Source: a virus
Taxonomy: Duplodnaviria; Caudoviricetes
IMG/VR virus record: IMGVR_UViG_3300022920_000008
Coordinates: 1 to 58,146 of that record
Direction: 5' to 3' (one strand)
Length of the DNA: 58,146 nucleotides
Both the position numbers and the translations under genes were made by a program. Every line of letters begins with the position of its first letter. Within the stretch, counting starts at the first letter, position 1. The notes beneath the pieces were generated by a model that worked only from the letters and a program-made list of their open reading frames with translations, ran no database searches and had not been told where the DNA came from. Shown in pieces: positions 1 through 14,905 of the stretch.

Positions 1-357
1 TCGAACAGGCTGGGCAGTCATACCACATACCACACCCACAAACATTAATCCATCGTGTACGGTTTTTAATATACCCTGACCATCCGGTTGATTGTTTTTA
101 AACTCACCAGTATAGCTGGCACCAGTACTCCATTCGTGATGACCAAAACCACACTTGCGATTGTCAGCAAACATTCCCACATAGCGTTCACCCTGTGTCC
201 ACGTCTTAGCCCCAGGACCATGTACTGCATCCTCAACAAAATGCCCAGCGCATGCACCCTCCCCACTGACCACATACAGGCCTATGCCATGTTCAGCACC
301 AGTATCACTTAGTTCACCATAGTAGTCACGACGTATTTGATAGTAATTGTTTAACAT
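1..357 (-). CDS. MORN-repeat protein (3' end runs off window)
   Basis: Not in the ORF track. ATG at 357 overlaps the upstream stop. Manual translation: MLNNYYQIRRDYYGELSDTGAEHGIGLY...GERYVGMFADNRKCGFGHHEWSTGASYTGEFKNNQPDGQGILK..., with tandem YxGxFxxxxxxGxG MORN-type repeats, open to position 1. Confidence 0.75.
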   Translation of the reverse strand, partial: MLNNYYQIRRDYYGELSDTGAEHGIGLYVVSGEGACAGHFVEDAVHGPGAKTWTQGERYVGMFADNRKCGFGHHEWSTGASYTGEFKNNQPDGQGILKTVHDGLMFVGVVCGMTAQPVR

Positions 358-1034
358 CCAGCTAACTCCATTGCTAGTTTATAGAAGTCTCGTTCAGGTT
401 CAATCTCATCCAACACACGTTGCTTGCTGTCTGATGATAGATCCGCCCAGGTTATATAACGCATACCCAGCTTCGATAAGCTATCCGCGGTATTATGTGT
501 TAGTGTCCACTCGGGATCAGGGGCTAATCCATACTGTTGGAACAGTCGGTCAATGCCAGTTATATGATCTCTCCCCAGTATGAATACATGATCCATGTCA
601 CGCAAGCCAGCCTCAGCATGCTCTTGTGTATCTCCCCAGTGTGAATACTGCCAGTGGAAAGCACTTGGTAACACACGTTCTCTATTAATGAACCAGCTAT
701 CGAAGTCTACCGTCGTATGTACACCATACAACAAGTTCATCTCCAGACGGTGGAAGTTATATCCACTAACCACACGGCGTATGGGATCACGTAACATGGC
801 TGCATGAGCGTAGTCACCAGCTAACTGTGGTGTTACACCGTGACCCATTACTACGGTTACACCCAGTTGTTCAGCTTCAGCTACAGGATGTCTGGTTAGT
901 TCCACTGGATTGCCATAGTTTAATACTATCTCATCCGGACGTCTACAGTATGCAAAGCCTGGTTCAGCTTGGTAACGATTGACTATGTACAAGCCGCCAC
1001 ACTTGTATAGATGATGGAATGCTAGTTTATTCAC
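351..1034 (-). CDS. sulfotransferase-family protein
   Basis: GTG start with GAGGAG RBS; FHHLYKCGG (variant 5'-PSB loop) and LRDPIRRVVSGY (3'-PB motif). Confidence 0.7.
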   Translation of the reverse strand: MNKLAFHHLYKCGGLYIVNRYQAEPGFAYCRRPDEIVLNYGNPVELTRHPVAEAEQLGVTVVMGHGVTPQLAGDYAHAAMLRDPIRRVVSGYNFHRLEMNLLYGVHTTVDFDSWFINRERVLPSAFHWQYSHWGDTQEHAEAGLRDMDHVFILGRDHITGIDRLFQQYGLAPDPEWTLTHNTADSLSKLGMRYITWADLSSDSKQRVLDEIEPERDFYKLAMELAGC

Positions 1035-1052
1035 TATAACTCCTCCCCGGGC

Positions 1053-1081
1053 ATACTATAAAATGTCGTGTAGTCAGACAA
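1053..1081 (-). promoter_or_regulatory. sigma70-like promoter TTGTCT-17-TAGTAT
   Basis: Exact 17-nt spacer, just upstream of the RBS of 351..1034. Confidence 0.45.
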
Positions 1082-1292
1082 AAAAAACCTTATATCAGCA
1101 ATACGCAGGTTCTGACCGAAATATTTTTTTAAAAAGGTCAGCAGAACTTTTTTATTCTGAGCATCAACCCATGGGCTACTATACTGGGGCAACTGTGGTA
1201 GTACCGTGGTATATACTGGGCATTTAATGCCGTGCAATCGCGGAGCGGCTTCGCCGCTTATAGTGGGTTGGATCAGTGGAGAAACGGCAATT

Positions 1293-2060
1293 TTATTTTG
1301 TAAGTTCATCGTACATCTTTCTTTCATACTGTGTATCTGCTTGTATCATGTGTTGTTGTTCACCGGGGAGATCACTGTATAGTATACTATAGCTCTTTTG
1401 AAATTTTAGTGTCTGACTGGTAACATTAGTACGTGTGATGTCTCGAGTACTATCGAAGCTGATGTTGTATTGTTCACATATACCTTCAAACTCTGCAATC
1501 ACATCCGTACCAGTACTTATATAGTGACTGATGCGTGGATGTGTGTTGGTCATAAACCAATCGTAATGTCGTTCAAGTACTTGTTGTTTGCGTTGGGTTA
1601 ATTCATCTGCTTGTTGTTTGTCAACGCTGGTGGTTGTTCCGTCCCAGTGTAGTATTTGGTTACTGTACAAGCGGTCGTACTCCATGATATCACGTGTGTA
1701 ATAGTCCTGACATTGGTTTAACCAGTCAATCATACTGGTATATCGCATGGGTCTAAAATGGTCTTTGTTGATAAACCATGTATAGAAGTCCAACTCTGTG
1801 GGGTCGTGTGGGTTCATATAGTGTAATTGACTGCGTACAAAGTTATACTGACTCATAATTCGCTCCACAGGATCACGCAATGCCGTAACATATATGGTGT
1901 CAGGGTCTGGTTCGTCAAACTTAACTGTGTGACCAAATTGCACTTGTTGCTCCGCTAGTTGGGGTTCACGGTCCACTGCACCAAAGTTTGGGTTGTGCCA
2001 CAGTCGTTCTATCAGTGTGGTGCCTGCTGTCTTGGGTATGTGTAGGAATTTTATCTTCAT
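1293..2060 (-). CDS. sulfotransferase-family protein
   Basis: FLHIPKTAGTT 5'-PSB motif and LRDPVERIMSQY 3'-PB motif. Confidence 0.85.
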   Translation of the reverse strand: MKIKFLHIPKTAGTTLIERLWHNPNFGAVDREPQLAEQQVQFGHTVKFDEPDPDTIYVTALRDPVERIMSQYNFVRSQLHYMNPHDPTELDFYTWFINKDHFRPMRYTSMIDWLNQCQDYYTRDIMEYDRLYSNQILHWDGTTTSVDKQQADELTQRKQQVLERHYDWFMTNTHPRISHYISTGTDVIAEFEGICEQYNISFDSTRDITRTNVTSQTLKFQKSYSILYSDLPGEQQHMIQADTQYERKMYDELTK

Positions 2061-3088
2061 GTTCTACTCTTTCCCATTATTATATCCGTAATACAGTAAC
2101 ATGCTTCTTTGTTACAAATGATACTCTTGGTGGGCAAGTTGAACTCAGCAATCTGGTTTATGTGTCCCAGTGGTTGAGTCTTACCAGGGCGATCCGTATT
2201 CCATTCAGGCAAGCATGCTGCACGATGTATCTCTCCACGTTCGTTAATAAACAAGCCATCAATGCCAGCCATACAACGCCAACCTCTGAAGTCAATACGT
2301 TTGCTCAGGTATAAGTTGTGTGCTGTTAGTGGAAACTCCGTATAGTATCTGCCGTCACTTGTGCGGAATGTTGCCGCTACATCCAGTGGCATTGGGTTCT
2401 TGTCAAAGTCCACCACAGGCTCATCAGTAAACCTCAGTATGGTATCCGCGTCTATATATGCTTGTTGTGCTAGAGTGTATATGTGCATGCTCTCATGGTC
2501 AGTTAACCAATCATCAACCACTGGAACCTTTTCTATGTGCAAGTTCTGGGGCTGTGGGTTGTTCTTGATACTGTCAAAGAACTCCACACACTTGTCAAAG
2601 TATTCCTGTCTGGTGTGCATCATAACACGTACACTCAGCATTGTATAAGGCCACAGTGTCTCAATCACCTTTAACATGTGTTTTATACTGCTCTTCTCAC
2701 TGTGGAAGCTGAAGCTTACCCAACGATACATGTGTCTGGTCTTTTCCCAGAACGCAATGCTTTTACTGCCGTTGGTTGTTAATCCTATCAGCACATCGTT
2801 TTCATACAACCATACCACCAGTTCCTCAAACAAATCAAGTGCTGTGGGTTCACCACCAGTAAAGCTGATTACCAATGTCTCTCCTGGGTCTAATTTAGAT
2901 TTAATCTTTGTGACTGTGTCTTTGTAGTGCTGTATATCAAAATCAGGACTGCTTCCGCTATAGTTGTAGGGATGGCAATACTCGCAACTAAAGTTACATG
3001 TGTTGGTTAAATTCCAATTAATGTGAAAGTATCGGTTGTGATCCTGAAGTATTTCAATCAGTTCAGTGTCTTTACTTAGTGATAGCAT
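2057..3088 (-). CDS. radical SAM protein with C-terminal Cys cluster (SPASM/twitch-like)
   Basis: CNFSCEYC, TGGEP, TTNG; C-terminal CMAG...C...CNKEACYC. Start moved to ATG 3088, which has a GGAGG RBS. Confidence 0.85.
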   Translation of the reverse strand: MLSLSKDTELIEILQDHNRYFHINWNLTNTCNFSCEYCHPYNYSGSSPDFDIQHYKDTVTKIKSKLDPGETLVISFTGGEPTALDLFEELVVWLYENDVLIGLTTNGSKSIAFWEKTRHMYRWVSFSFHSEKSSIKHMLKVIETLWPYTMLSVRVMMHTRQEYFDKCVEFFDSIKNNPQPQNLHIEKVPVVDDWLTDHESMHIYTLAQQAYIDADTILRFTDEPVVDFDKNPMPLDVAATFRTSDGRYYTEFPLTAHNLYLSKRIDFRGWRCMAGIDGLFINERGEIHRAACLPEWNTDRPGKTQPLGHINQIAEFNLPTKSIICNKEACYCITDIIMGKSRT

Positions 3089-3920
3089 AGTTTTTAATAC
3101 CTCCATATGGCAGACGTGCATTGCTAGTCCACTTGCCAACCTTTATATATCCATAGGGTAAATCGTTGACGCTTGTTCCCCATTTCCTATACTGATGTGG
3201 TAGCTTGACCCGTTTCATAACTTCATCATGTGTTAAGTCAGGACCACAATACAATGTTAAATTGTTGTTGCGGTATGTCATGGGCGTTACTATTCCCACT
3301 GAGCCCAGGTTACGACGGTAGTCTATTGTACGCAAGCCCAGTGAGATACCCAATGTTGGATCACCCAATAGTATGTCTCCGCCCTTGATATCGTAATTAA
3401 AATCGTTTTCTAATTGCTGGTCAGTTAATTGTACAAAGTCGCCGCCAAAGTTTATATCATAGCTGTTGTTAAACAATACGATGTCGCTAAGTCTCTTTAT
3501 GTAACTTAACGCTTCTATAAGGGGAGCAGCTTCCTCATGACGTGCTTGTTGTACAAGATACTGGTATTGTACAAACATGTCAATATGTAACTTGGGTAAA
3601 TTAAAATAAGTATCAGACTCAACATCCCCAGCCAAATAGTCATGTATTCGTACCTGTGGGCGTTCAAACACCACAGGATAATGGATTATCTCGTTGGCAA
3701 TGTATCCACATACGTCATAATAGTTGACATTTGTCTCTGGCCAGTTGCGATCATAGACAGCATCTAACAATCTGTCCAGTTCCATCTGCATTTCATCCAT
3801 TGTTTTATGCAAAGTTTCATTGGCAAGGGTGGGTGTTTGGTTGGTATTCAATGGTGTATCCAGTTGAACATCAATATAATCATGGTTGTCAAAATCAATT
3901 CTAAAATTACTCAGTCCCAT
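3072..3920 (-). CDS. hypothetical protein
   Basis: 282-aa ORF overlapping both neighbours in the operon. Confidence 0.7.
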   Translation of the reverse strand: MGLSNFRIDFDNHDYIDVQLDTPLNTNQTPTLANETLHKTMDEMQMELDRLLDAVYDRNWPETNVNYYDVCGYIANEIIHYPVVFERPQVRIHDYLAGDVESDTYFNLPKLHIDMFVQYQYLVQQARHEEAAPLIEALSYIKRLSDIVLFNNSYDINFGGDFVQLTDQQLENDFNYDIKGGDILLGDPTLGISLGLRTIDYRRNLGSVGIVTPMTYRNNNLTLYCGPDLTHDEVMKRVKLPHQYRKWGTSVNDLPYGYIKVGKWTSNARLPYGGIKNYAITK

Positions 3921-5188
3921 ATCTGATAAAACTCCCCAAATGCTGACGGAAAGTCTGTTCCGTTCAGTCTGTCAATGTGTCTCACATACTCATGTAGTGT
4001 GTTGTTCTTGTGACTTTGATCCTCACTGTTCATGAAGTCCAATAGCTGTGCAAACTCCTGTGCTGTAGGATTGTCAGGATACTGTGCCATAAAGTTGTTC
4101 AGCTTGTCAGTAATAATTTTCTTTGTAGTTAATGGCAACACCTTTGCACTCATGTATTGTGGATAGTGTAGTATACCTGGATGGAACAAACCATCGTGAT
4201 GACTTGCAAACTTCTCATAGCCCTGTGCCATAATCCATTCACAAAACTCCACTACGTAGAATATATTAAGTGCATGTACTGTGCCCAGTATCTTTCCCAC
4301 AATGTTGTCTGGTGCATTTTCCAATTTGTCAATTGTTTGCTCAACAGCACTCCAGTCCGTGGGATACCTTAGCCAATGGTTTCTGTCTCCAGTGTTGTCT
4401 ATACTTAACATAACTTCCACACGTTTGAACTTGCTCCACATCTCTACAATGTCATCAGGCATGATTGTTCCGTTTGTGTGGTAGCGTAGTTCTATCTGAT
4501 GTGCATAGCCACTGTCAGCACAACGTTTGAGAAAGCGTTTGTGGTTCTTTAAGTATAGTGGTTCGCCTCCAGCAAATATAAAGTGTCGCATGTTGGGCAA
4601 TAGTGGCATTACTTCCTCATTCCAGAAGTCATCATCCTTGGCCCAGTCAAACTCTCCACTTGCATGGTCGTCTACTTTCCACTGCCACTCACCAGCAATC
4701 TCAGCGTTGTCTACTTGGCTTAGTACTTTGGCATCATTTACCCACTTGCTGCTGTCTGTTGGCCTACACATAACGCATTTAACATTACATGTGTTACCCA
4801 AACGCAAGTCCAGTGTAATTACATCTTGTGACAAGTGACCATCATCAGCAGTGTTGTCTATAAGGTCCTGGATGTATTCTTCTCCCAGTTGTTGACCCCA
4901 GATATTGTTTTCGTTAATACGATGGCTTCTAATACCACTTCGTTCTTCACGAGTACAATGTTTACATGCAGGCAGTTGTTTGCCAGCTAACATATCCACT
5001 CGTGCTGACTTAAAGTAATTGCTGTTCCATATAGCATCAATAGTTGCCACATTAAAGTTTAATCGCTTGTCGTGCTTGGGAGGCTGTGCAAGACAACACA
5101 ACAATGCTGTACCGTCAGTATAGCTTGCCATGTGGATCCACGGCAGGATGCAAAACCCTTTGCCATGTTTTTCAGTTAGTTTATCCAT
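3911..5188 (-). CDS. radical SAM protein with N-terminal twitch-like Cys domain
   Basis: FCILPW..CC..CKHC N-terminal domain; LRLGNTCNVKCVMC; AGGEP; HTNG. Start placed at ATG 5188, coupled to the upstream stop. Confidence 0.85.
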   Translation of the reverse strand: MDKLTEKHGKGFCILPWIHMASYTDGTALLCCLAQPPKHDKRLNFNVATIDAIWNSNYFKSARVDMLAGKQLPACKHCTREERSGIRSHRINENNIWGQQLGEEYIQDLIDNTADDGHLSQDVITLDLRLGNTCNVKCVMCRPTDSSKWVNDAKVLSQVDNAEIAGEWQWKVDDHASGEFDWAKDDDFWNEEVMPLLPNMRHFIFAGGEPLYLKNHKRFLKRCADSGYAHQIELRYHTNGTIMPDDIVEMWSKFKRVEVMLSIDNTGDRNHWLRYPTDWSAVEQTIDKLENAPDNIVGKILGTVHALNIFYVVEFCEWIMAQGYEKFASHHDGLFHPGILHYPQYMSAKVLPLTTKKIITDKLNNFMAQYPDNPTAQEFAQLLDFMNSEDQSHKNNTLHEYVRHIDRLNGTDFPSAFGEFYQIWD

Positions 5189-6506
5189 CCTTGACCAATC
5201 TCTCAATTTGTTGGTATAGTTCACTGTCTATTGCGCTAAAGTTTTCGTTACGCATACGATCTAATGATCCAGTAAACTTGAGGAAGTCTGTTAAGTTCTC
5301 ATGCCAGTTTTCCAACTGTGGTTGTGACAAGTATCCCAATACGCCATCTATACTATTTTTAACCAACCAGTTCTCACTATACAACCAACTGCTGTTTTTG
5401 AACTTGGTTAACTGCTCAGTTGCACTCTCTCGCAACTCAACAGGTAAGTTTCTAATATCTAAATGTACAGGGTGTGTGTTGATTAAAATGTCAACACCAA
5501 TACTACGATCACGTGACGCACTAAGCTCTTGTGCAAATTCCAGTACTTCGTGTATTCTATTTATATTGTATATTTGCAGCACTGGTGTGATGTTACTGTT
5601 AACATTGGGTAACTCAAGAATGTTCCGGTAGTTACGCACTATGGTATCCCAACTGCGGCTACCACGTATGTAGTTGTTTACTTCGCCTATGCCATCCAAA
5701 CTTGCATTGATGTCACAGTCGTCAAACTTACTAATGCTTTCAATAAAACGTCGATTGGCATTTGTTAGGTTGGTGTTCATAAACACATTGATGTTTTTAC
5801 TGTAGCCTAGTTCAGCTGCACGATTGAGGAAGTCCATGTTGTTTTTAATCATAGTAGGTTCGCCGCCAGTCATATAAACTTTACGCAACGTTGGCATCCA
5901 CTCGTTGATGTTATCCCACAAGTCTGGTTTATCAAACTTTGTCAAATACTCTTTGCTGGCAGTCCATTCGGGTATCTCGCCAAATGTCTTCTCCATAACC
6001 TCAGTGTAGTTTTCTTCTGTGTCTTTTGTTTTCTGAAACTCTTTGGCAATCTGACTACTATTAAATGGATTGCACATACGACATGTCAAGTTACACAAGT
6101 TGCCCAAGCGCATATCCAAATACACTGGCGGCTTGTCTACTTCCATGTCTGCATCAATACTATCGTTAACACGATCCTGTATCTCTTGTAAGCCAATACG
6201 ATCTTCCCATTCCTGGTTGTGCATCTGGCGGAAACTTTTCTTGCCAACTTCTTCCTGTAAGTAACAATGCTTACAACTGCTGACTTTTTTACCATCAAGC
6301 ATTGCTTGCCTGATGTCTCGCATGTCCTGACTATTCCAGGCTTCAGCTAAACTTGTGGTATTGATGTCTAATTTTTTGCCATCTTGGTCACGCAATTGGC
6401 TAGGCTTGGCAATACAACAAAAGTCAATACTACCTGTTGTATTAACCATTAGACTAATCCAAGGGTATATACAGAAAGTATCACTAATTTTGTCTAGTTT
6501 ACTCAA
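5181..6506 (-). CDS. radical SAM protein with N-terminal twitch-like Cys domain (paralogue of neighbour)
   Basis: FCIYPW..CC..CKHC; MRLGNLCNLTCRMC; TGGEP; TTG start with AGGAG RBS. Confidence 0.85.
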   Translation of the reverse strand: MSKLDKISDTFCIYPWISLMVNTTGSIDFCCIAKPSQLRDQDGKKLDINTTSLAEAWNSQDMRDIRQAMLDGKKVSSCKHCYLQEEVGKKSFRQMHNQEWEDRIGLQEIQDRVNDSIDADMEVDKPPVYLDMRLGNLCNLTCRMCNPFNSSQIAKEFQKTKDTEENYTEVMEKTFGEIPEWTASKEYLTKFDKPDLWDNINEWMPTLRKVYMTGGEPTMIKNNMDFLNRAAELGYSKNINVFMNTNLTNANRRFIESISKFDDCDINASLDGIGEVNNYIRGSRSWDTIVRNYRNILELPNVNSNITPVLQIYNINRIHEVLEFAQELSASRDRSIGVDILINTHPVHLDIRNLPVELRESATEQLTKFKNSSWLYSENWLVKNSIDGVLGYLSQPQLENWHENLTDFLKFTGSLDRMRNENFSAIDSELYQQIERLVKDG

Positions 6507-6514
6507 CTTGACTC

Positions 6515-7369
6515 CTAAACCGCCATAGGGGCTTTAATAGTATCCATTGGCGTATATCCTTCAAGTATATACTCTTTAGGCTTGGTTGTCAATAGCTGAT
6601 CCAATGTTTTAAACTCTGGCATAATTAATTGTGGACGTTTTTGTGGTTCACGTACGGTTTGTTGTTCTACTTGTTCCAAATGATTGTGATAGATATGACA
6701 ATCACCACCACTCCAGACAAAGTCTCCCACCTCTAAGTCGCATAGCTGTGCTAACATATGAGTAAGCAAACTATAACTTGCAATGTTAAACGGCACACCC
6801 AAGAACATATCAGCACTACGCTGGTATAACTGGCAACTTAGTTTGCCATTGATTACTTTAAACTGCGCCATAGTGTGACAAGGTGGCAATGCCATTTTTG
6901 CAATTTCTGGAACATTCCATGCATTTAGTATAATGCGTCTACTGTCAGGATCGTTTTTAATCTGATCAATGATATTTGCAATTTGATCAACTCCACCAAA
7001 ATTACGCCACTGTTTTCCATATACAGGACCCAAGTCTTTATTTGTATCACTGTTGTAGTGTCCTAGTGCGACTCCTTGGTTGTCTGCGTTTGCTGTCCAG
7101 ATAGTCTTCTTACCAACAAGATTATCCTTAGTGTCACCAAAGTGAATTTCAGCAAGCCTACGCTCGTTGATTGATCCTTCAAGGAACCAAAGCAATTCAC
7201 TTACTACTGATTTCCATGCAAGTTTCTTTGTTGTTACTGCTGGAAATCCTTTGCGCAAGTCAAAACGCATCTGGTGTCCAAATACGCTACGTGTGCCAAC
7301 CCCTGTGCGGTCATCAACGTCTTCTCCAAAGTCTCTAATGTATCTTAATGCGCCTAAGTATTGTATCAT
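6515..7369 (-). CDS. thyA: thymidylate synthase
   Basis: DRTGVGT, ELLWFL, LGPVYGKQWR, ALPPCH (catalytic Cys), YQRSADMFLGVPFN. Confidence 0.97.
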   Translation of the reverse strand: MIQYLGALRYIRDFGEDVDDRTGVGTRSVFGHQMRFDLRKGFPAVTTKKLAWKSVVSELLWFLEGSINERRLAEIHFGDTKDNLVGKKTIWTANADNQGVALGHYNSDTNKDLGPVYGKQWRNFGGVDQIANIIDQIKNDPDSRRIILNAWNVPEIAKMALPPCHTMAQFKVINGKLSCQLYQRSADMFLGVPFNIASYSLLTHMLAQLCDLEVGDFVWSGGDCHIYHNHLEQVEQQTVREPQKRPQLIMPEFKTLDQLLTTKPKEYILEGYTPMDTIKAPMAV

Positions 7370-7779
7370 AATTTACCTTCTTGTCTAAGTTTAGCACGTA
7401 TCTTTGTTGCACTTATGTCGTGAATGTCAGTTCCCAAGTCATGCTCAGTAAATGTGTATCCTACACCTCGACCATAACTAATGTCAACGATGTTAGGCAC
7501 TACCATAATAATATACTCAGTCCCTGCCTTGTATCCATGCTTTAGTAATCCTGCTTTAATGTTAGTAATGACTTCTTTTTCATTAAAAGGATTGTCATCT
7601 TGTGTTGCAGTTCTACCTGCCCCAGCATCTTGTCCTACAATGCCGCCTACATCTCTAATCATAATTGCAACTTGTCCGGTTACCTCAAGTGCTTTTTTAA
7701 AAAGAGCAGTGTGTCCATCGTGCCATGGTTGCCATCGTCCAAGCATTTGTGTTGTTGGCTTCTTATAGTCAAACTTCAT
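7366..7779 (-). CDS. HxGH nucleotidyltransferase (cytidylyltransferase-like fold)
   Basis: GRWQPWHDGH and C-terminal ISATKIR motif. Confidence 0.8.
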   Translation of the reverse strand: MKFDYKKPTTQMLGRWQPWHDGHTALFKKALEVTGQVAIMIRDVGGIVGQDAGAGRTATQDDNPFNEKEVITNIKAGLLKHGYKAGTEYIIMVVPNIVDISYGRGVGYTFTEHDLGTDIHDISATKIRAKLRQEGKL

Positions 7780-8194
7780 TAATTTCCATCCAACGTTGTA
7801 CTACTGGCATCAACTGTTGGTGGGCATTGTCAAACCAATCCTCTACATGATAGTCTACATTACGTGGTGGGTCAAACATATCATTTGTGTCTTCATATAC
7901 ACTTCTAGAAATAGTATCCATCCACACTGTATAGTCAGCATTGAACTCATAGCGTGTTAGTATGGTAGGACAAATAAAGTCGCACACTGCAACCTTGCCT
8001 GCCTTAACGACACCGTCAGCTAAGTATCTCATTCTAGATGCTTGTCTATTTCTTCCAATTGGACTGAAATCCCAATCATTATATTCTTTTCTAACTTGAT
8101 CAGCATTGATCCAAACACCGTTTATCAACTCAGCAAACGGCTTGGCTAGTGTTGTTTTACCACTGCCAGGTAATCCCATAATTAATATTTTCAT
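7769..8194 (-). CDS. adenylyl-sulfate kinase-like P-loop kinase
   Basis: GLPGSGKTT, NADQVR, DFSPIGRNRQ, DFICP, typical of CysC-like kinases; short (141 aa). Confidence 0.75.
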   Translation of the reverse strand: MKILIMGLPGSGKTTLAKPFAELINGVWINADQVRKEYNDWDFSPIGRNRQASRMRYLADGVVKAGKVAVCDFICPTILTRYEFNADYTVWMDTISRSVYEDTNDMFDPPRNVDYHVEDWFDNAHQQLMPVVQRWMEINEV

Positions 8195-8667
8195 TTTTTA
8201 GTCCAGGTCTCGATATATAACGTACTGTCGTGTACTTCACTTAACTTAAAATCGTTAAGTATTTTATTCTCTGGTAGGAATGTGTCACAGTTATATGTAC
8301 CTTCAATCCTACTTAAATGTATCTCGTCAATAATATCCCATAGGCCATCAATTAACCTAGCACCGCCAATAATCCATACGTTTTGTGTATTGGTCGTCAT
8401 CTGTGGCAATATTTTTAGTAAACCATCAATGTCTACAACAATATTACCAAGAGCGTTTTCAATAGGCTGTGTGGTTACAATAGCATTGGTCCTACCAGGC
8501 AGCGGCTTTCGTGGTAAACTTTCCCAAGTTTTACGACCCATAACAACTACATCGCCGGTAGTAGATTCTTTAAACCATGCTAGATCATCCAAATTCTTGG
8601 GCCAAGGCAAGTCACCGTCTTTACCAATGCCCCAGGCTTGATCACATGCCAGTATTGCTTTTATCAT
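8191..8667 (-). CDS. folA: dihydrofolate reductase
   Basis: GIGKDGDLPW, VVMGRKTWESL, PLPGR, IIGG, CDTF. Confidence 0.95.
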   Translation of the reverse strand: MIKAILACDQAWGIGKDGDLPWPKNLDDLAWFKESTTGDVVVMGRKTWESLPRKPLPGRTNAIVTTQPIENALGNIVVDIDGLLKILPQMTTNTQNVWIIGGARLIDGLWDIIDEIHLSRIEGTYNCDTFLPENKILNDFKLSEVHDSTLYIETWTKK

Positions 8668-9644
8668 TCGATAGAGTTCTCTACTTGGTCTTCTCTAATT
8701 TGTGGAGCCATGCGACTAGGATTAATGTACACACGTTTGAAAAATTTACTTCCTTGTGCGCCAATGTCAGCAATGTCTAACTTTAAGTCTTGACGAATGT
8801 CACGACCCAATTCAAAAGTCTTTTCCTGAATCTTCTCTAAGTCCCAACGCATGCCTGTGCGTACACACATTTGGTCGTCGCCTTCAAACTGCGGGGCTAC
8901 CTGTGTATTAAAGAAGTTGTTTAGCCATTCAAAGTTACGTACTTCTTTCCAGTCCCAACTTTCACGTGCCACGTTTGTCATGTGACATCCTAGACGTGCG
9001 CCATATGTAGCCCAAATTCCATTAGTAACATCTTCGCCTACTGTCATCCAAGTTAGCAACCGTTGGAAGTTTTTGCCGTGTACATTCTTTTCCAAGTTAC
9101 GTGGATCAACTACATCGCCGTCTACCAATCCCATCTTAACACCTTCACGGAAGCCTGCACGCCAAGCCTGTAGTGGGCTACCATTGTTCAATACATTACA
9201 ATAGATGTTATTCATTTGTACGTAATTGATGTTCCAACAAAAGTCTACTTGTGCAGCTGCATTGTCAGGGTCTGCGTTCTCATGTGTTTTCATATTCATA
9301 ACAACTGGTTTGGGCCAACACTTGATGCCGCCGTTGCCATATACAAGACCATTAATCTCATTCTTTCCAGCCCAACTGATAACATCAGTATCGCCAATCT
9401 TATCCATGTCTACTTCAACATTAAAAAATGCAGGGTCAACAATATTGTCTGCATCTACTGTGATGAAACGATCAGTTTCTGCCATCATAGCTGCTGCTTT
9501 GTGTGCTGCGTCACTACCTTCTACACCGTGGCTGCGTTTAGCCCACGGGCATTTATCCAGTAAGTCTGAATAATTTTCATCTGCATTTGGTTCATCGTAA
9601 CTTATGAACACAATATCAAATTCATTAATGCTTGTTTTTGACAT
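8664..9644 (-). CDS. glycosyltransferase-like protein (GT-A fold)
   Basis: DIVFISYDEPNAD, AHKAAA, FITVDADN (DxD), YGNGG. Confidence 0.6.
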   Translation of the reverse strand: MSKTSINEFDIVFISYDEPNADENYSDLLDKCPWAKRSHGVEGSDAAHKAAAMMAETDRFITVDADNIVDPAFFNVEVDMDKIGDTDVISWAGKNEINGLVYGNGGIKCWPKPVVMNMKTHENADPDNAAAQVDFCWNINYVQMNNIYCNVLNNGSPLQAWRAGFREGVKMGLVDGDVVDPRNLEKNVHGKNFQRLLTWMTVGEDVTNGIWATYGARLGCHMTNVARESWDWKEVRNFEWLNNFFNTQVAPQFEGDDQMCVRTGMRWDLEKIQEKTFELGRDIRQDLKLDIADIGAQGSKFFKRVYINPSRMAPQIREDQVENSIE

Positions 9645-10618
9645 TAATCTACTCTCCCTATATAGTTGACATACAAGTTTTCACACTTGTATAAAATTAT
9701 TGGACGTGCTGGCATTTTAAAATCCAACTTAGCCCTTACATTATTTTTGTTAATTATTTGATCAGATTCAATCTGAAATCCACCTATAACATTATCTATT
9801 ATACTGTCACATACTAAAAAATGTAAGTGTTTATTTCCACCTAGTACGTTTGAATTTTCGTTATTGATTAAACTTGAGTTAATTTTAATATACTTACCAT
9901 CGTAACGCATGCTCAGATGCTTTTGATCATCTTCATTTGTTACTTGCTGTATATATTTATCGTCGCTGACTGGACGTCCTTCTCGAACATCTTTCTCACT
10001 AACAGTATACGCATACGTTTTAAATATTGGACATGTAAAAATACTAATGTTAGATAAATCATAATCAATATCAGTTAATTGTACACGCAACATTTTTTGC
10101 TTGAACAATAACTTTGGATCTATTTCAATCTGTGCAATTAATTTATCAGGGTCATTCTTTTCAGTAACATACATGTCCATTAAAGCACCAGTTGTATTTG
10201 TTACTTCGTGAATGTCTCCCAAGTTCATATTACGCTTGATACTTTCGATGTTAATACTAATCTCTAGTATATGACTGTCAACGAAAATTTCAACAAACAC
10301 ATCTTGTTTACTACGGGCGCCAGGATATATTTGAAACATCTGACTACTTAGACGTTTTAAATTTAATTTGTTAGAACGCTCAACAACATGCAACTTACCT
10401 GTGTCAATGTCACGAGCCACACTGCAAGTCTTAATGTTTACTTTCCCATCAATCATCTTTAAGATTAGATCTTGATCTTCAGTAATAAATGTATCTTGGT
10501 TTTTTCTGACCCTAGTGATAGGATTAGGACTTATCCTATATACCCTACCAGTATTAGTGTCATACTTTATCCACCACTGTGCTTTTTCTCTTTGCTGCGG
10601 TATTCCTAAAAGTTCCAT
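9644..10618 (-). CDS. hypothetical protein
   Basis: 324-aa ORF in the operon, coupled to its neighbours. Confidence 0.7.
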   Translation of the reverse strand: MELLGIPQQREKAQWWIKYDTNTGRVYRISPNPITRVRKNQDTFITEDQDLILKMIDGKVNIKTCSVARDIDTGKLHVVERSNKLNLKRLSSQMFQIYPGARSKQDVFVEIFVDSHILEISINIESIKRNMNLGDIHEVTNTTGALMDMYVTEKNDPDKLIAQIEIDPKLLFKQKMLRVQLTDIDYDLSNISIFTCPIFKTYAYTVSEKDVREGRPVSDDKYIQQVTNEDDQKHLSMRYDGKYIKINSSLINNENSNVLGGNKHLHFLVCDSIIDNVIGGFQIESDQIINKNNVRAKLDFKMPARPIILYKCENLYVNYIGRVD

Positions 10619-11429
10619 ATACTTCGTCCGTTATAAAATTTATATCAGCATACGTTAGTACACTGTTGACTGTAAAGTTTTGTACTTTAACTCTGCCTTC
10701 TGGTATCACCCAATAATTTAATTTCTCTAGCCAACTATTAGTTATTGTCTCTGACTTGAGCATGCGATGTGTTTCACGTTGCATGTCAATATTATTAACA
10801 AAATCATATTTAGAGTTTATATAATTACTGGTGGTGCCCAAGCTATCAATAACAAGCCTGTGCATTAAATGTGTGTCATAGGTTCCATCCGTAAAGATAG
10901 GATCTACTAATGCTTTAAATGCATCACGCCAGTTTTGCATTAGTGGGTCAGCCATTTTAAAATATGTTAAACTTTCTTCGCTCTTGTCAAAGAAAAAGAT
11001 ATTTGAATTGACTGTGTGTTTTTTGTTTGCACTATAATATGTTTCACCAATATCCAAACATTGAGTATTATTAAAACGTGCGAAGGTGCTAAGTAAACAT
11101 ACATTATAAGAATACATTAAATAATCAAACGTATAACTAATATCATTACACAATACACTATAGCAGTCAATAAAGATACTATTGTCATATGGCGATGCCC
11201 AGTATAGTTGCCAGTCGTTACTTCTTGTTTCTTGCGTACTAGTAAACGGAAATTCTACAATGTAATCAAATGCATACTCATGATGAGATAATACACCAGC
11301 TAATGAAGGTACAACCATTGTTACACTAGCTGTTGGGTTGTATGTCTTAATACTATTAGCTAGCGTAGCCGCGGCTACCTGTTGTTGTTTTGTAGTAGCA
11401 ATAGTAATAAATCCTTTATCAGGTATCAT
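10560..11429 (-). CDS. glycosyltransferase-like protein (GT8-like, degenerate DxD)
   Basis: KGFITIA...LANSIK...ASPYDNSIFIDCY; start at ATG 11429 with GGAG RBS. Confidence 0.55.
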   Translation of the reverse strand: MIPDKGFITIATTKQQQVAAATLANSIKTYNPTASVTMVVPSLAGVLSHHEYAFDYIVEFPFTSTQETRSNDWQLYWASPYDNSIFIDCYSVLCNDISYTFDYLMYSYNVCLLSTFARFNNTQCLDIGETYYSANKKHTVNSNIFFFDKSEESLTYFKMADPLMQNWRDAFKALVDPIFTDGTYDTHLMHRLVIDSLGTTSNYINSKYDFVNNIDMQRETHRMLKSETITNSWLEKLNYWVIPEGRVKVQNFTVNSVLTYADINFITDEVYGTFRNTAAKRKSTVVDKV

Positions 11430-12303
11430 CTGTTTGCTCCGCATATTTTACGATAATTCTATCTAATGCTCGTTTGTTCATACAATGTACATCACTTTTT
11501 TCATGCCTAACCATAATATTTTTCCAATTCTCTTTTGGATCATGTGACAATACAATCCAAGTTTCATCATCCAAACTGTCGACAATATCATCCTTGCCTG
11601 ATAAGTTTTGCATTGGTATGCCGCCAAAGTTGTTTATCTCTTGTCCTGTTGCCATGCCGTTCATAATGTGTGCAGCTATGCTTACACAAAAATCTGTTCT
11701 GTACATGCCTCCAGGAAAGTTATATAAGAATTTATAATAGTCATAATTATCTTTGACATATTCCCAAGTATCAAAAAATAGTTTACTTGTTTCACTTTGA
11801 TCAAAGTATACTACAGTACTCCACCACATTTTAATGCCATGTATAAACAAACGTCTTTCATGCATATGCATTGGGCAATTGCGCATACTAATAGCATCGT
11901 CAAACATTGATACACCAGTATAACTTGTAAACGCATGTTCGAGGAAGTCTGACTTTAAAATGTAATCAATATCTAATAGCAATGTTTTTTCGTAAGGAGT
12001 ATATTCAAATACTTTATGTTTATTACTATTACTAAATTGTGCATTGAATTGTGTCCAAGGACTATCATAATGATTGCGAGTATTTTTCTCTAGCTCATCA
12101 TCAGTAACTACTACGTCTGTAATATATTTTTTAATCTCAGCATTGCCGTGACTTTCAATAAGCCAATCCCAACTACCTTGATCTGTAATCAAGCATACTG
12201 GTCGATTTAAATATTTTTTAACTTTCTTAGCTGCAAACAACGCTAACTTGACATAGTCAATATGTTCATTGTTGTATGCAAAAAAGCAAACGCCTTCAGT
12301 CAT
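11419..12303 (-). CDS. glycosyltransferase-like protein (GT8-like)
   Basis: GVCFFAYN...PVCLITD...YTPYEKTLLLDIDY (DxD)...WWSTVVYF...HCMNK. Confidence 0.6.
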   Translation of the reverse strand: MTEGVCFFAYNNEHIDYVKLALFAAKKVKKYLNRPVCLITDQGSWDWLIESHGNAEIKKYITDVVVTDDELEKNTRNHYDSPWTQFNAQFSNSNKHKVFEYTPYEKTLLLDIDYILKSDFLEHAFTSYTGVSMFDDAISMRNCPMHMHERRLFIHGIKMWWSTVVYFDQSETSKLFFDTWEYVKDNYDYYKFLYNFPGGMYRTDFCVSIAAHIMNGMATGQEINNFGGIPMQNLSGKDDIVDSLDDETWIVLSHDPKENWKNIMVRHEKSDVHCMNKRALDRIIVKYAEQTDDT

Positions 12304-12651
12304 TTACCAGTCCATTAGTTTCTTAAGGTTACGAACCTTCTTGAGTTTTTCAAACTCAGCTTCGTATTCATTCATTGCATCGTTATATGCTGACAATAAT
12401 GTTTCTTGAAACTCTACCAAGCTAGTGATACGAATTGGATTTTCTTTTGTATCAACAATAATACTTCCAGTTGCACCATTAGCAATTAATGTTTGTACAA
12501 ATGATATTGTAGATGTATCAGCATAAAAAACACCATTGTTGTGGTGTACTGTTGTCAACTGTTTAACTCTATTTTTAATAAGTTGTTTTTGATTTGCAAT
12601 AGTTGCACTGTAGTTTCCAAACTCAAGTGCTTTTGTTAGTCGTTCGTCCAT
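12304..12651 (-). CDS. hypothetical phage protein
   Basis: 115-aa ORF with GGAG RBS; first gene after a sigma70 promoter. Confidence 0.75.
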   Translation of the reverse strand: MDERLTKALEFGNYSATIANQKQLIKNRVKQLTTVHHNNGVFYADTSTISFVQTLIANGATGSIIVDTKENPIRITSLVEFQETLLSAYNDAMNEYEAEFEKLKKVRNLKKLMDW

Positions 12652-12676
12652 AGATGTCTCCGTTATGGTTACTACT

Positions 12677-12705
12677 ATAATATACTAGTGATTGTTTTTT
12701 GTCAA
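12677..12705 (-). promoter_or_regulatory. sigma70 promoter TTGACA-17-TATTAT driving the leftward accessory operon
   Basis: Consensus -35, 17-nt spacer and near-consensus -10 upstream of 12651. Confidence 0.75.
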
Positions 12706-12712
12706 GAAGATA

Positions 12713-12934
12713 TTATTCGTCTTTAGGCTTATCATCCTTGACGTCAGCGTCGCCTTCGCGAGCTTGTTTTTCTGCTTTGGTTAATTTTTGATTCCAAGAG
12801 TTGTTGCTTATATTAAGCTCACTTGGCATTGGTTTTGTTTTTATTTTTTTAATAGCGCCGCCCTTTTTCAGGAACGCCGCTACTAATTTTTCTGTTTCTT
12901 TGTCTTTTTTATTTGGTTGGTGGTTCATTGCCAT
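12713..12934 (-). CDS. small basic hypothetical protein
   Basis: 73 aa, AFLKKGGAIKKI; preceded by a TATAAATA late promoter. Confidence 0.6.
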   Translation of the reverse strand: MAMNHQPNKKDKETEKLVAAFLKKGGAIKKIKTKPMPSELNISNNSWNQKLTKAEKQAREGDADVKDDKPKDE

Positions 12935-12956
12935 AGTAATAACTTTCTGTTACTAC

Positions 12957-12964
12957 TATTTATA
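12957..12964 (-). promoter_or_regulatory. T4-type late promoter TATAAATA
   Basis: Exact T4 late consensus in an intergenic gap; a gp55 homologue is encoded in the window. Confidence 0.6.
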
Positions 12965-12966
12965 GA

Positions 12967-13578
12967 CTAGTAACCACTCACTGTGACTAAAATTGGTACA
13001 CTGGTGTATGTAATTTGACCTATTACTACAGTAAGCGTAGAGTTATTAGGTGCAACATCTGCTGCTGTTAGTGTAACTTCTAATTTAACCTCTGATCCTA
13101 CAGTTACTTCTGTGATAGTGATACTATCTAGTAGTACAGCACTACCAACTGTTGTTGGACTACTAACGTTAAAGTTTCCATCCGAGTCAGCTCTACTAAA
13201 CACATACTCATTTGTTAAGTAGTAGGGAGTATCACCAGAATTATTGATGAAAGTTAACATAAGTTTACCGCCACTGGTATATCTGAGTATTGTGTTACTA
13301 TAGATAATTTTTTCGTAGTCGCCATTTGCGTTTTTGTTGGCAGGATAATCTTGTATTGTTCCTTTAATTGTATCAGTTATAACATATGGTGAAAATACAT
13401 TATTAGTGGTGAGCTTACCAAAAGTTAGTTCACCAGTAATCTCTTGAGCTTCATTTGCAGTAACTCTTGCTGTTAAATCCGTGATGGCAGCTTCATTAGT
13501 ATCTACTAGTGTAAAGTTTTCGTCCATCTGTGCATGTGATAATGCTGGGCCGTTAAGGCCTTTTTGTGTTGTTGGCAT
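12967..13578 (-). CDS. putative tail fibre/virion-associated protein
   Basis: N-terminal KGLNGPALSHAQMDENF motif resembles fibre N-termini; GAGG RBS; lies in the structural block. Confidence 0.5.
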   Translation of the reverse strand: MPTTQKGLNGPALSHAQMDENFTLVDTNEAAITDLTARVTANEAQEITGELTFGKLTTNNVFSPYVITDTIKGTIQDYPANKNANGDYEKIIYSNTILRYTSGGKLMLTFINNSGDTPYYLTNEYVFSRADSDGNFNVSSPTTVGSAVLLDSITITEVTVGSEVKLEVTLTAADVAPNNSTLTVVIGQITYTSVPILVTVSGY

Positions 13579-13597
13579 CTTAAGCCTCCTATCTTTG

Positions 13598-14905
13598 TTA
13601 TGGGTCTGCTATATACCCAGGTTCCACATATCCTTCTAAGGTATATGGTGTAGTGTTAGTTACTCCGTTCCAATCATAGTATTCAACTAATGCTGGTCCG
13701 ATGCGAGCCTCGTACTGATAGTACAATGGCCTTGTTAAAAAATCTCCGTTAGAATCTCTATATGGCAGTCCTGTTTCAGGATCTAATTCCCCGTGTACAT
13801 AACCTGGTTCTACATAACCTGGATCTGCATAAAGGTCAGCATATGGTTGTGATACTGGAGGATATTCAGGTGTTACTGGTTGCTGTGGTAAGTCTGCATA
13901 TGTAGTAGTAGCATTACCGGCATCAATTTGTGCTGTTTTAGGTGCTGTATCAGGAACAATAACACCTACTTCTAATATTAAGTCTAAGTGTGCGCTAATG
14001 CCATCGTCAGGATCAACTAGCTCTACTTCTAAAAATATATCAATCTCATTGTTAGCAAGCTCTACGACTTTTGCCCACAATCTAATCTTAGCTGAGTCGT
14101 ACTCACCACCAATACCATACTCATCAGCATACTCACCGCCACCACTACCAGTAGCAACTTCAAATACTCTTGTGCGGTCATTTGGGTTACAATCATAAAA
14201 TCCTAATGACATAATTGGATTTACATATCCATCAGTTGTTACGTTGTTAGCACCAAATTTAATAGTGCCAGTACCTTGTAAAATGTCTGCCCAAGCAAAG
14301 CCACGGCTACTTTCGCCTACACTCTCACCTAAGTTAAAAATTATTTGACCGCCGCCGTTAAAAAAATATCTTGCTTCTTGGTAGTCGCTAAATTTAGCTA
14401 CAACTCCTGCTGAAGTAGTAGTGTCAAAATCAAAGTCAATTGCATCAATTACAACCACATCCACATCCATATCTGCATATGCAGGATTAAGATCATTCTT
14501 TGTAGCTTCAATACTTTCAATTTTTTGCTTAACTAATTCTAATGCTTGAGCGAAAATAATTTCATGTGTTACGTTGCCATACTCATCACTGAACTTTCTA
14601 GGATCTTTAAATTTAGATAAAGGGTTAGCTTCGCCATCTGCACTCATATGAGCTAGCCCAGCATTGATTTGAGCTACTAACTGATTGGCATGTTCAGCTA
14701 AAATGATTGTTGCTTCATTTACGCTTTGTGGTTCAACATCATCTTGGCCCCAACCAGTTCTAATTAATTCTTTTGATGATGGATTTAAATCTTGTAATCT
14801 GAATTGTGTATTATCGTCTGCCCAATAGGAGTTATACATAGTAAGCAGTTCATTGAACTGTTCATATGTAATTAAATTATTTTGTCCAATTGGTGGAGTA
14901 GCCAT
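13598..14905 (-). CDS. putative virion structural protein
   Basis: GWGQ and ARYFFNGGGQI motifs; acidic; repeated YVEPGY; in the baseplate operon. Confidence 0.55.
   Translation of the reverse strand: MATPPIGQNNLITYEQFNELLTMYNSYWADDNTQFRLQDLNPSSKELIRTGWGQDDVEPQSVNEATIILAEHANQLVAQINAGLAHMSADGEANPLSKFKDPRKFSDEYGNVTHEIIFAQALELVKQKIESIEATKNDLNPAYADMDVDVVVIDAIDFDFDTTTSAGVVAKFSDYQEARYFFNGGGQIIFNLGESVGESSRGFAWADILQGTGTIKFGANNVTTDGYVNPIMSLGFYDCNPNDRTRVFEVATGSGGGEYADEYGIGGEYDSAKIRLWAKVVELANNEIDIFLEVELVDPDDGISAHLDLILEVGVIVPDTAPKTAQIDAGNATTTYADLPQQPVTPEYPPVSQPYADLYADPGYVEPGYVHGELDPETGLPYRDSNGDFLTRPLYYQYEARIGPALVEYYDWNGVTNTTPYTLEGYVEPGYIADP

Follow-up and report, generated by a model that had tools for sequence, protein, structure and literature searches.

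We have analysed a stretch of DNA of 58,146 bases, hereafter the window, which is a complete IMG/VR record (IMGVR_UViG_3300022920_000008) of a virus of the Caudoviricetes and is estimated to cover about 16% of a genome. The window encodes T4-like proteins, namely a portal, a prohead protease, a major head protein, baseplate wedge and hub components, a gp55-like late sigma factor and a gp46/47-like nuclease, and in its major capsid protein it shares 65-70% identity with jumbo phages, among others Pseudomonas PA5oct, Sinorhizobium Phosso and Pectobacterium CBB. The subject of this analysis is a run of minus-strand genes in which a small kinase (KIN) and a small nucleotidyltransferase (NT) stand between a dihydrofolate reductase (DHFR) and a thymidylate synthase (ThyA), the run also comprising two sulfotransferase-like proteins (ST1 and ST2), three radical S-adenosylmethionine (radical-SAM) enzymes and candidate glycosyltransferases (GTs). 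We propose that KIN and NT would together make 3'-phosphoadenosine 5'-phosphosulfate (PAPS), by way of adenosine 5'-phosphosulfate (APS), for the sulfotransferases. Positions 351-12705 have no match among cultured phages by megablast. In the direction of transcription, the features of the run are the following.

12677..12705, minus strand: sigma-70-like candidate promoter TTGACA-17-TATTAT with 11/12 consensus matches, 26 nt ahead of the run's initial ATG
12304..12651, minus strand: open reading frame (ORF) of 115 aa, first of the run, no Pfam, PHROGs or NCBIfam match
11419..12303, minus strand: GT-A (GT8-like) glycosyltransferase candidate, 294 aa, from its nearest Atlas clusters
10560..11444, minus strand: ORF of 294 aa, weakly paralogue-like to 11419-12303 (BLASTP E = 0.046, a lead only)
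9644..10618, minus strand: ORF of 324 aa, no Pfam, PHROGs or NCBIfam match
8664..9644, minus strand: GT-A-like candidate, 326 aa, with a DAD motif (GT2 lead at 0.87 only)
8191..8667, minus strand: DHFR (PF00186, 118.5 bits; phrog_316)
7769..8194, minus strand: KIN, lidless APS-kinase homologue of 141 aa, proposed APS 3'-kinase, from profile and fold
7366..7779, minus strand: NT, HIGH-superfamily adenylyltransferase of 137 aa, proposed minimal sulfate adenylyltransferase, from motifs, fold and context
6515..7369, minus strand: canonical thymidylate synthase ThyA (PF00303, 331.7 bits; NF002497, 345.9 bits vs cut-off 327)
5181..6506, minus strand: radical-SAM enzyme with N-terminal twitch/SPASM domain, N_Twi_rSAM (NF033640, 369.5 bits vs cut-off 170)
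3911..5224, minus strand: second N_Twi_rSAM radical-SAM enzyme (NF033640, 367.9 bits vs cut-off 170)
3072..3920, minus strand: ORF of 282 aa, no Pfam, PHROGs or NCBIfam match
2057..3139, minus strand: third radical-SAM enzyme, 360 aa from a TTG start (PF04055, 38.1 bits); the true start may lie further downstream
1293..2060, minus strand: ST1, Sulfotransfer_2 sulfotransferase, 255 aa (PF03567, 24.2 bits vs cut-off 22)
1034..1327, minus strand: ORF of 97 aa, no Pfam, PHROGs or NCBIfam match
351..1034, minus strand: ST2, divergent sulfotransferase-like paralogue, 227 aa (PF03567, 17.6 bits, below cut-off)
1..357, minus strand: MORN-repeat ORF (PF02493), still part of the run and truncated at the end of the contig

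A preliminary description of this DNA had placed a promoter at the head of a tightly coupled gene run, and had the kinase and the HxGH nucleotidyltransferase joined to DHFR and ThyA by overlapping start and stop codons. Both points are borne out: the minus-strand ORFs are continuous from 12651 to base 1, with overlaps or with gaps of at most 8 nt, and the overlaps amount to 4 nt for DHFR/KIN (8191-8194), 11 nt for KIN/NT (7769-7779) and 4 nt for NT/ThyA (7366-7369). The region has just one real intergenic gap (12652-12712), and it is here that the TTGACA-17-TATTAT site lies (12705..12677, minus strand), followed by GGAGA and by the ATG at 12651. Its 11/12 matches make the top promoter score in 1..14000, tied with two other sites; as a class, promoter-like sites barely exceed chance (59 found vs 45.8 ± 6.5 in shuffles), so that this promoter is plausible, not proven. 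DHFR and ThyA look like ordinary nucleotide-metabolism genes which merely flank the pair.

KIN carries the Walker A P-loop GLPGSGKT and matches the APS_kinase profile PF01583 with 28.9 bits (cut-off 21.1) over profile positions 5-91 of 152. When a profile of 28 members of the KIN family is compared with the Protein Data Bank (PDB), APS kinases come first, with 2yvu at 1.7e-11 and about 20 more APS-kinase chains. In agreement with this, Foldseek with the AlphaFold model (pLDDT 94.8) ranks APS kinases first (E 5e-7 to 1e-5, TMq 0.76-0.83) and gluconate kinase behind them, and the best fold matches include the kinase domains of PAPSS1 and PAPSS2. The invariant columns D32, R35, F43, R48, Q51 and F73..P76 align with the DGDxxR, GF(S/T), xR and F(I/V)SP stretches of APS kinases, which we take to hold the substrate-site residues, namely DGDxxR, the aromatic of GF(S/T), the Arg that follows it and F(I/V)SP; in the alignment with 2yvu these stretches read NADxVR, DFS, GR and FICP in KIN, and they are invariant in the 28 family members. 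Clearly, KIN is a stripped-down, lidless APS-kinase homologue, the preliminary description having already noted a short kinase without the usual lid. Judged from its genomic context, KIN very probably acts as APS kinase for the sulfotransferases.

The second protein of the pair, NT, has the motifs GRWQPWHDGH and ISATKIR, with H20-D-G-H23 invariant in its family, and matches PF01467 with 16.7 bits, below the cut-off of 21. All curated NCBIfam family models score far under their cut-offs for NT, including the models of nicotinamide mononucleotide (NMN) adenylyltransferase, NMNAT (NF002243, 26.2 bits vs 127; TIGR01527, 21.3 vs 181.2). The NT profile aligns to NMNATs at positions 16-78 and in a short C-terminal piece only, NT being 30-45 residues shorter, and the segment after the third strand in NMNAT/NadM is presumably the one that binds NMN. 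Matches of the profile to phosphopantetheine adenylyltransferase, PPAT (E = 0.02-2), and to glycerol-3-phosphate cytidylyltransferase are weak. The structural model has a pLDDT of 87 and finds nothing by Foldseek at E <= 1e-3. Its sole low-confidence stretch (pLDDT ~61) is a Gly-rich insertion of ~13 residues, GGIVGQDAGAGRT, at NT ~44-60, which is present in the NT of the window and in its closest relatives and which most of the family lacks. The family is large: at a minimum, the 90%-identity clusters contain 7995 relatives of near-equal length and, at E <= 1e-3, 963 representative clusters (50% identity) are matched. By its sequence, NT is intrinsically a minimal adenylyltransferase of NMNAT-like descent, and R15, R42, N96 and R104 are candidate residues for an anion site.

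We have surveyed the pair in 78 viral and 80 bacterial loci, each found through NT. In the viral set, KIN precedes NT in 70 of the 78 loci, immediately so in nearly all and fused in 18 (for example as a 277-aa ORF in L075), and five of the eight viral loci without KIN are cut by a contig end; among the bacterial loci KIN is present in 70 of 80. The PHROGs family phrog_10255 spans both proteins, its first half being KIN and its second half NT, and fused KIN-NT proteins occur in cultured phages of Xylella, Xanthomonas and Stenotrophomonas. NT also matches 1692 longer proteins, of which the best 120 include 90 with PF01583; the fused relatives have the kinase N-terminal and the adenylyltransferase C-terminal. 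The closest syntenic relative of the window (L033) keeps the order DHFR-KIN-NT-ThyA. Since KIN and NT are translationally coupled in the window and fused in many relatives, they probably act as one bifunctional PAPS synthase, as judged from gene arrangement. In 11 viral loci an ORF of ~87 aa for a DUF2061 membrane protein, absent from the window, is found between KIN and NT (e.g. L038:9742-10002), and in P0198 NT begins with a fused hydrophobic extension of similar kind; this ORF may be a membrane tether for the KIN-NT module.

Two proteins with PAPS-binding motifs had been described downstream of the pair, and the motifs are indeed found in both: PKTAGTT and RDPVERIMSQY in ST1, which lies over the PF03567 cut-off, YKCGG and RDPIRRVVSGY in ST2, which lies below it. 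We take PKxxGT to be the 5'-phosphosulfate-binding motif and RDPxxRxxS the 3'-phosphate-binding motif of PAPS-dependent sulfotransferases. ST2 is 26% identical to ST1, and the Lys, Arg and Ser columns invariant in an alignment of 10 sequences of the ST1 family are kept in both. ST1 has 10 relatives in a large protein collection; a tblastn search with ST1 against phages and a scan of viral contigs for its close relatives found nothing, and the PF03567-type sulfotransferase of L085 likewise has no match among cultured phages. A protein 96% identical to ST1 (P0273) is encoded on a 322-kb contig labelled 'bacterium' by NCBI, which probably represents almost the whole genome of this jumbo phage, or of one closely related to it, that was binned as bacterial.

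The co-occurrence of the pair with sulfotransferases, which the preliminary description had named as a test able to refute its proposal, was analysed in both directions. By tblastn, ST1 and ST2 found no counterpart in the 78 viral NT loci, a problem of sensitivity as sulfotransferases of other subfamilies were later found there by Pfam models. With these models, a sulfotransferase match is present in 15 of 50 viral records with the pair, 13 of them over cut-off, and the matches belong to two unrelated Pfam groups. The sulfotransferase lies at most ~6 kb from the pair in eight of these records (nine counting the window) and directly upstream of it in L075 and L078. The reverse search, started from Sulfotransfer_1/3-type proteins, gave at least 532 viral relatives, of which 80 loci were kept: within 10 kb of the sulfotransferase, KIN is found in 32 and NT in 24 of the 80, mostly directly downstream and sometimes overlapping. 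The KIN-linked sulfotransferases are 29-100% identical to the query and the linked KIN genes come from several subfamilies, which argues that the linkage is not an accident of one lineage. PF01747, the canonical ATP sulfurylase (Sat) family, is found in none of 50 sulfotransferase-bearing viral records. PAPS reductase (PF01507) is over cut-off in none of 52 phage records, and there is thus no sign in these of phage PAPS feeding sulfate assimilation.

The same association is observed in bacteria, where the genome scan for NT is dominated by SAR11 (Pelagibacteraceae) and SAR86, with a few soil Alphaproteobacteria. In three of the four soil loci (L243, L245 and L246) a sulfotransferase flanks the fused pair. 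The SAR86-order set comprises 151 genomes of the order of G102, at least 80% complete, with NT in 93 and Sulfotransfer_3 in 102; both are present in 89 genomes, NT alone in 4, the sulfotransferase alone in 13 and neither in 45 (Fisher p = 6e-22, the genomes not being phylogenetically independent). At least 8 of these genomes have the genes for the sulfotransferase, KIN and NT side by side on a single strand. PF01747 occurs in 1 of the 151, and PF01507, the CysD/CysH family, in 7, two of these matches being strong and both in NT-negative genomes. In the complete genome G102, which has neither PF01747 nor PF01507, there are two strong sulfotransferases and a single APS_kinase match, namely KIN. 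Something must make PAPS in this organism, and KIN-NT is the only candidate seen.

A different set of sulfur genes accompanies the pair elsewhere. CysQ is a phosphatase that removes 3'-phosphoadenosine 5'-phosphate (PAP), the by-product of PAPS use, and cysQ lies directly upstream of KIN-NT in four loci (L167-L170; TIGR01331, 288.5 bits vs cut-off 228.8). In three further loci (L232, with NT at 7983-8360, L236 and L238) an NT of 126 aa without KIN is found directly upstream of aprM-aprB-aprA and on the same strand, the assignments of AprA (988.8 bits vs cut-off 641.75) and AprB (188.6 vs 135.65) being at equivalog level, and in L171, L175, L176 and L178 the KIN-NT pair abuts the apr cluster. 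In Allochromatium vinosum sat is reported to be co-transcribed with aprMBA, in the same upstream position as NT here (PMC3779200). A conserved ORF of 116 aa (cluster 24) always follows aprA in these seven loci, and ahead of NT-aprMBA are found genes for a CADD-family protein and an MFS transporter as well as a cystathionine-beta-lyase-like gene; these surroundings look like a SAR11 sulfur-handling locus.

We have compared 81 Pelagibacterales genomes, of the order of G101 and at least 85% complete, of which 64 have NT, 65 AprA and 3 Sat. NT and AprA occur together in 64 genomes, NT without AprA in none, AprA without NT in 1, and neither in 16 (p = 5e-16); without the unpublished genome G329 the counts are 63/0/1/16. 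In 14 genomes NT lies at most ~1.5 kb from aprA. Two published accounts report that Pelagibacter has AprBA and lacks cysDNCHIJ and sat (PMC5069961), and that ATP sulfurylase is absent from most SAR11 (bioRxiv 10.1101/2022.09.23.509140). What SAR11 with AprBA lacks is an enzyme making or consuming APS, and the gene whose distribution follows that of AprA is NT.

Taken as a whole, the evidence makes it probable that KIN and NT are a minimal PAPS synthase feeding the phage's sulfotransferases, with NT as a sulfate adenylyltransferase of a new type. The preliminary description had proposed a self-contained sulfation route with the 137-aa transferase as minimal ATP sulfurylase, a proposal to which the sulfotransferase, cysQ, aprMBA and AprA contexts lend support. 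In such a route NT would convert ATP and sulfate into APS and pyrophosphate; KIN, for which homology and fold are established, would then phosphorylate the 3'-OH of APS (APS + ATP -> PAPS + ADP); and ST1 and ST2, of which ST1 is a family member, would transfer the sulfate from PAPS, with release of PAP, to an acceptor which the GT-like and radical-SAM enzymes encoded alongside would build or modify. The fusion and translational coupling of KIN and NT suggest a complex which would pull the unfavourable first step, as in PAPS synthases. For NT taken by itself, the role of sulfate adenylyltransferase is likely, at a confidence lower than that in KIN as APS kinase.

A number of observations weigh against this interpretation. 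The ATP-sulfurylase reaction is thermodynamically uphill. Sat/MET3-type ATP sulfurylases have an N-terminal PUA-like domain and ~350-400 aa, whereas NT is a single domain of 137 aa without a PUA-like N-terminal domain. The nearest PDB relatives of the NT profile are archaeal NMNAT/NadM, at 4e-12 to 1e-6 (1f9a, 3.9e-12; 2qjt, 1.4e-10), no ATP sulfurylase is among its 44 PDB matches at E <= 10, and PF01747 has no match in the window record. The structure comparison proposed earlier, of ATP sulfurylase versus NMNAT or cytidylyltransferase, confirmed the HIGH-type fold and did not discriminate further: the Z scores obtained with VIA-align (NadM 9.7, PPAT 9.7, Methanocaldococcus jannaschii NMNAT 8.7, Thermus ATP sulfurylase 8.3 with 119 residues aligned) are effectively tied, so that NMNAT and ATP sulfurylase, at 8.3 vs 8.7-9.7, are not separable. 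As to KIN, the half of PF01583 that holds the mobile lid of APS kinases (profile positions 92-152) is unmatched, its 141 aa compare with 173-211 aa in solved kinases, Asn replaces the first Asp of the DGD stretch, and the equivalog TIGR00455 is failed (22.8 bits vs cut-off 138.7). The linkage is also incomplete: 48 of the 80 viral sulfotransferase loci have no KIN within 10 kb; no cultured sulfotransferase-bearing cyanophage is among the KIN or NT matches; no sulfotransferase was detected in G050, a 100%-complete 362-kb phage record with the pair, nor, for two of three families searched, in Xylella phage Sano with the pair; the 18 kb of L033 hold no sulfotransferase, GT or radical-SAM genes like those of the window; and no sulfotransferase is detectable in the SAR11 core-genome neighbourhood of the pair. 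Finally, G104 carries a canonical Sat as well as KIN-NT, and the counts in the SAR86 and SAR11 sets come from genomes that are not phylogenetically independent and only at least 80-85% complete.

Some of these observations fit a reading in which KIN, as a genuine APS kinase, raises the supply of PAPS from APS of host origin, and NT has another adenylyl-transfer or accessory role tied to adenine-nucleotide turnover. NMNATs are the only significant sequence relatives of NT with known function, a canonical Sat stands beside KIN-NT in G104, and a sulfotransferase is accompanied by KIN alone in L091, L135/L136, L140/L141, L142 and L156, which implies that KIN suffices in some hosts. Such a role is at odds with an NT that occurs without KIN in the sat position of aprMBA clusters and tracks AprA across the 81 SAR11-order genomes (64/0/1/16), with sulfotransferase-bearing SAR86-order genomes that have almost no other APS-forming candidate, and with the company NT keeps with KIN in 70/78 viral and 70/80 bacterial loci; we consider it unlikely. 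The frequent placement of the pair in glycan islands, with GT25, Gly_transf_sug, UDP-glucose dehydrogenase (UGDH), KdsA/KdsB-like, mannose-phosphate isomerase and NodU-like genes, might instead point to the activation of a sugar or polyol for the adjoining GTs, with KIN making the phosphate ester and NT converting it into a nucleotide-linked (NDP or CDP) donor after the manner of TagD- or HldE-type systems, and glycerol-3-phosphate cytidylyltransferase and HldC are in fact among the fold matches of NT (Z 6-7). This is very unlikely, given that by profile and fold KIN is related to APS kinases and not to sugar kinases, and that the cysQ, aprMBA and AprA links, in loci without glycan genes, would be left unexplained.

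Two further readings start from the cofactors that HIGH-type enzymes make. A NadR-like module for NAD salvage, with a ribosylnicotinamide kinase and an NMN adenylyltransferase, would account for the GRxQPxHxGH and ISxTxIR motifs of NT, for archaeal NMNAT and NadM as its best matches and for the name NMNAT given by JGI to several homologues, and the NadR-type chain 9x6f weakly matches both KIN and NT. In that chain, however, the domain order is reversed, NT being the N-terminal match and KIN the C-terminal one; KIN resembles APS kinase and not the NadR kinase; the NMNAT models are far under their cut-offs (26.2 vs 127 and 21.3 vs 181 bits); only the N-terminal ~63 residues of NT and a short C-terminal piece align, in a protein shorter by 30-45 residues; and NAD-salvage genes are not among the recurrent neighbours. 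As canonical NadD is over cut-off in 3 of 5 pair-bearing host genomes and near it in one more, the pair is not needed for NAD synthesis, and we hold a NAD salvage role to be highly improbable. The same conclusion applies to coenzyme A (CoA), since in these five genomes CoaD is over cut-off in 5/5 and CoaE is matched in 5/5 and over cut-off in 3. A CoA-type route, with PPAT and a dephospho-CoA 3'-kinase, or a route to some other 3'-phospho-ADP-X cofactor, has in its favour that PPAT ties for the best fold match of NT (Z 9.7), that the 3'-phosphorylation of an adenosine 5'-diphospho compound is the chemistry of APS kinase, and that in SAR11 the genes next after the pair encode an enoyl-CoA hydratase and a CoA-binding protein. 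With PPAT sequence matches of just E = 0.02-2 and the sulfotransferase, cysQ and apr linkage unexplained, it appears the least probable of all the readings considered.

Returning to the synthesis of PAPS by KIN and NT, the genes around the pair bear on what would be sulfated. The three GT-like genes described upstream of it have no Pfam, PHROGs or NCBIfam match (8664-9644, 10560-11444 and 11419-12303). The candidate at 11419-12303 has solid support, its nearest Atlas clusters being a nucleotide-diphospho-sugar transferase, GT8 (Glyco_transf_8) and Mannosyl_trans3 (scores 0.95-0.97), while those at 8664-9644 (0.87) and 10560-11444 (E = 0.046) are weak leads only. The product of 8664-9644 has a DxD-like 'DAD' and homologues of 31-32% identity next to KIN-NT in L061 and, in L063 and L064, next to NT, which is at the contig edge there with KIN not seen. 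The gene order of L061 is NodU-like, KIN, NT, UGDH, GT-like and two sulfotransferases, and that of L063 (10.4 kb) is NT, UGDH and the GT-like gene, followed by five radical-SAM genes in a row, one of them of the N-terminal-twitch type. These two distant loci repeat the gene set of the window, which argues that its GT-like, radical-SAM and sulfotransferase genes work together, and its three radical-SAM genes seem to belong to a recurrent modification route. Going by these arrangements, the three enzymes probably modify the substrate of the sulfotransferases.

The NodU-like carbamoyltransferase gene of L061 (L061:125-1615) lies directly beside KIN-NT and its product scores 158 bits to NodU, far below the cut-off; another neighbour of the pair, L172:8557-10059, resembles it, as judged on N-terminal sequence only. 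NodU-like genes and a weak NoeE-like match of a phage sulfotransferase recall Nod-factor-style oligosaccharide decoration. The neighbours of the pair in the window and in related islands include GT-A-like transferases, UGDH, NodU-like and GT25/GT9-like genes, and on this account the sulfated acceptor is most likely a glycan, of the envelope of the infected cell or of the virion. For DNA, also put forward earlier as an acceptor of sulfate, nothing was found in support, ThyA being a canonical thymidylate synthase. A related candidate, DNA hypermodification by a thymidine-modifying kinase beside a ThyA-like hydroxymethylase, was rejected on the grounds that ThyA is over the canonical equivalog cut-off and that the relatives of KIN are APS kinases.

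Comparison with known systems shows what the KIN-NT pair shares with each of them. The metazoan PAPSS1/2, a fusion of APS kinase and ATP sulfurylase, have the two-step chemistry proposed here and the kinase-first domain order of the fused relatives, but have ~620 aa vs ~250-290 aa for KIN-NT, in which the kinase is lidless and NT is not PF01747, has no PUA-like domain and groups with NMNATs. The rhizobial NodP/NodQ and NodH are a dedicated PAPS supply for sulfating a glycan signal, and the likeness extends to a private sulfate-activation module beside sulfotransferases and glycan genes, with weak NodU- and NoeE-like matches in the loci related to ours; NodPQ are homologues of CysD/CysN/CysC, whereas the adenylyltransferase of KIN-NT is of another family and has no GTPase subunit. 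With archaeal NMNAT/NadM (1f9a, 1ej2, 2qjt, 2qjo), its best sequence relatives, NT shares GRxQPxHxGH, (I/V)SxTxIR, the NPF stretch and the fold (Z 8.1-9.7), and differs in being shorter by 30-45 residues, far below the cut-offs and set in a context of sulfur, not NAD, metabolism. In L232, L236 and L238 NT occupies the place that sat has upstream of aprM-aprB-aprA in A. vinosum (PMC3779200); NT, with 126-137 aa, is unrelated at family level to the ~400-aa Sat, the window has no apr genes, and the phage pair would run towards PAPS and not towards sulfate and ATP.

The phrog_10255 'kinase' of Xylella phages Sano and Salvo, Stenotrophomonas phage DLP_6 and others is a fused KIN-NT, with 33-49% identity. 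It is annotated just as kinase, adenylylsulfate kinase or hypothetical, its C-terminal half has no assigned function and no sulfotransferase is annotated nearby; in DLP_6 a PF03567 match lies ~90 kb from the fused pair. A search of the literature on phage sulfotransferases, PAPS and SAR86/SAR11 sulfate activation, with subscription journals outside its coverage, found no prior description of the enzyme pair.

Elsewhere in the window, a second HIGH-superfamily nucleotidyltransferase of 206 aa (35577-36197, minus strand) has baseplate/virion genes on one side and the late sigma factor on the other, in a position unrelated to the KIN-NT pair, and its NMNAT, PPAT and NadD-like matches are weak and far under cut-offs except for TIGR00125 (23.1 bits vs 27.7). 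A single giant ORF of 3489 aa (16459-26928, minus strand) adjoins the baseplate module and corresponds to phrog_10938, 'virion structural protein'. An HNH endonuclease gene (30430-30987, minus strand) is found inside the baseplate wedge cluster, and an ORF of 160 aa (40262-40744, plus strand) has the phrog_447 label 'NAD synthetase' and resembles a group I intron (GIY-YIG-type) endonuclease by NCBIfam. These two are probably homing endonucleases, the phrog_447 label looking misleading.

Sat and CysDN are the two enzyme types usually credited with sulfate activation. From the evidence assembled here, it is probable that KIN-NT is a non-orthologous, minimal PAPS synthase whose reach extends well beyond this phage. 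With somewhat less confidence, we favour the broader view that the NT family of 126-140 aa would be a third, unrecognised class of sulfate adenylyltransferase derived from an NMNAT-like scaffold, which would act with the lidless kinase as the PAPS synthase of SAR86 and, alone or with this partner, as the 'missing Sat' of SAR11 with AprBA, the module having been captured by many marine and soil phages, including the jumbo phage of the window, for glycan sulfation in the course of infection. If true, a third and much smaller type of sulfate-activating enzyme would change the annotation of sulfur metabolism in marine metagenomes and explain how SAR86 runs many sulfotransferases without Sat or CysD. 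It would also address the SAR11 puzzle of an APS reductase without ATP sulfurylase, as set out in the two accounts (PMC5069961; bioRxiv 10.1101/2022.09.23.509140). Viruses would then carry a complete kit of donor and transferase for sulfating glycans, which would bear on host-surface remodelling, superinfection exclusion and marine sulfated polysaccharides.

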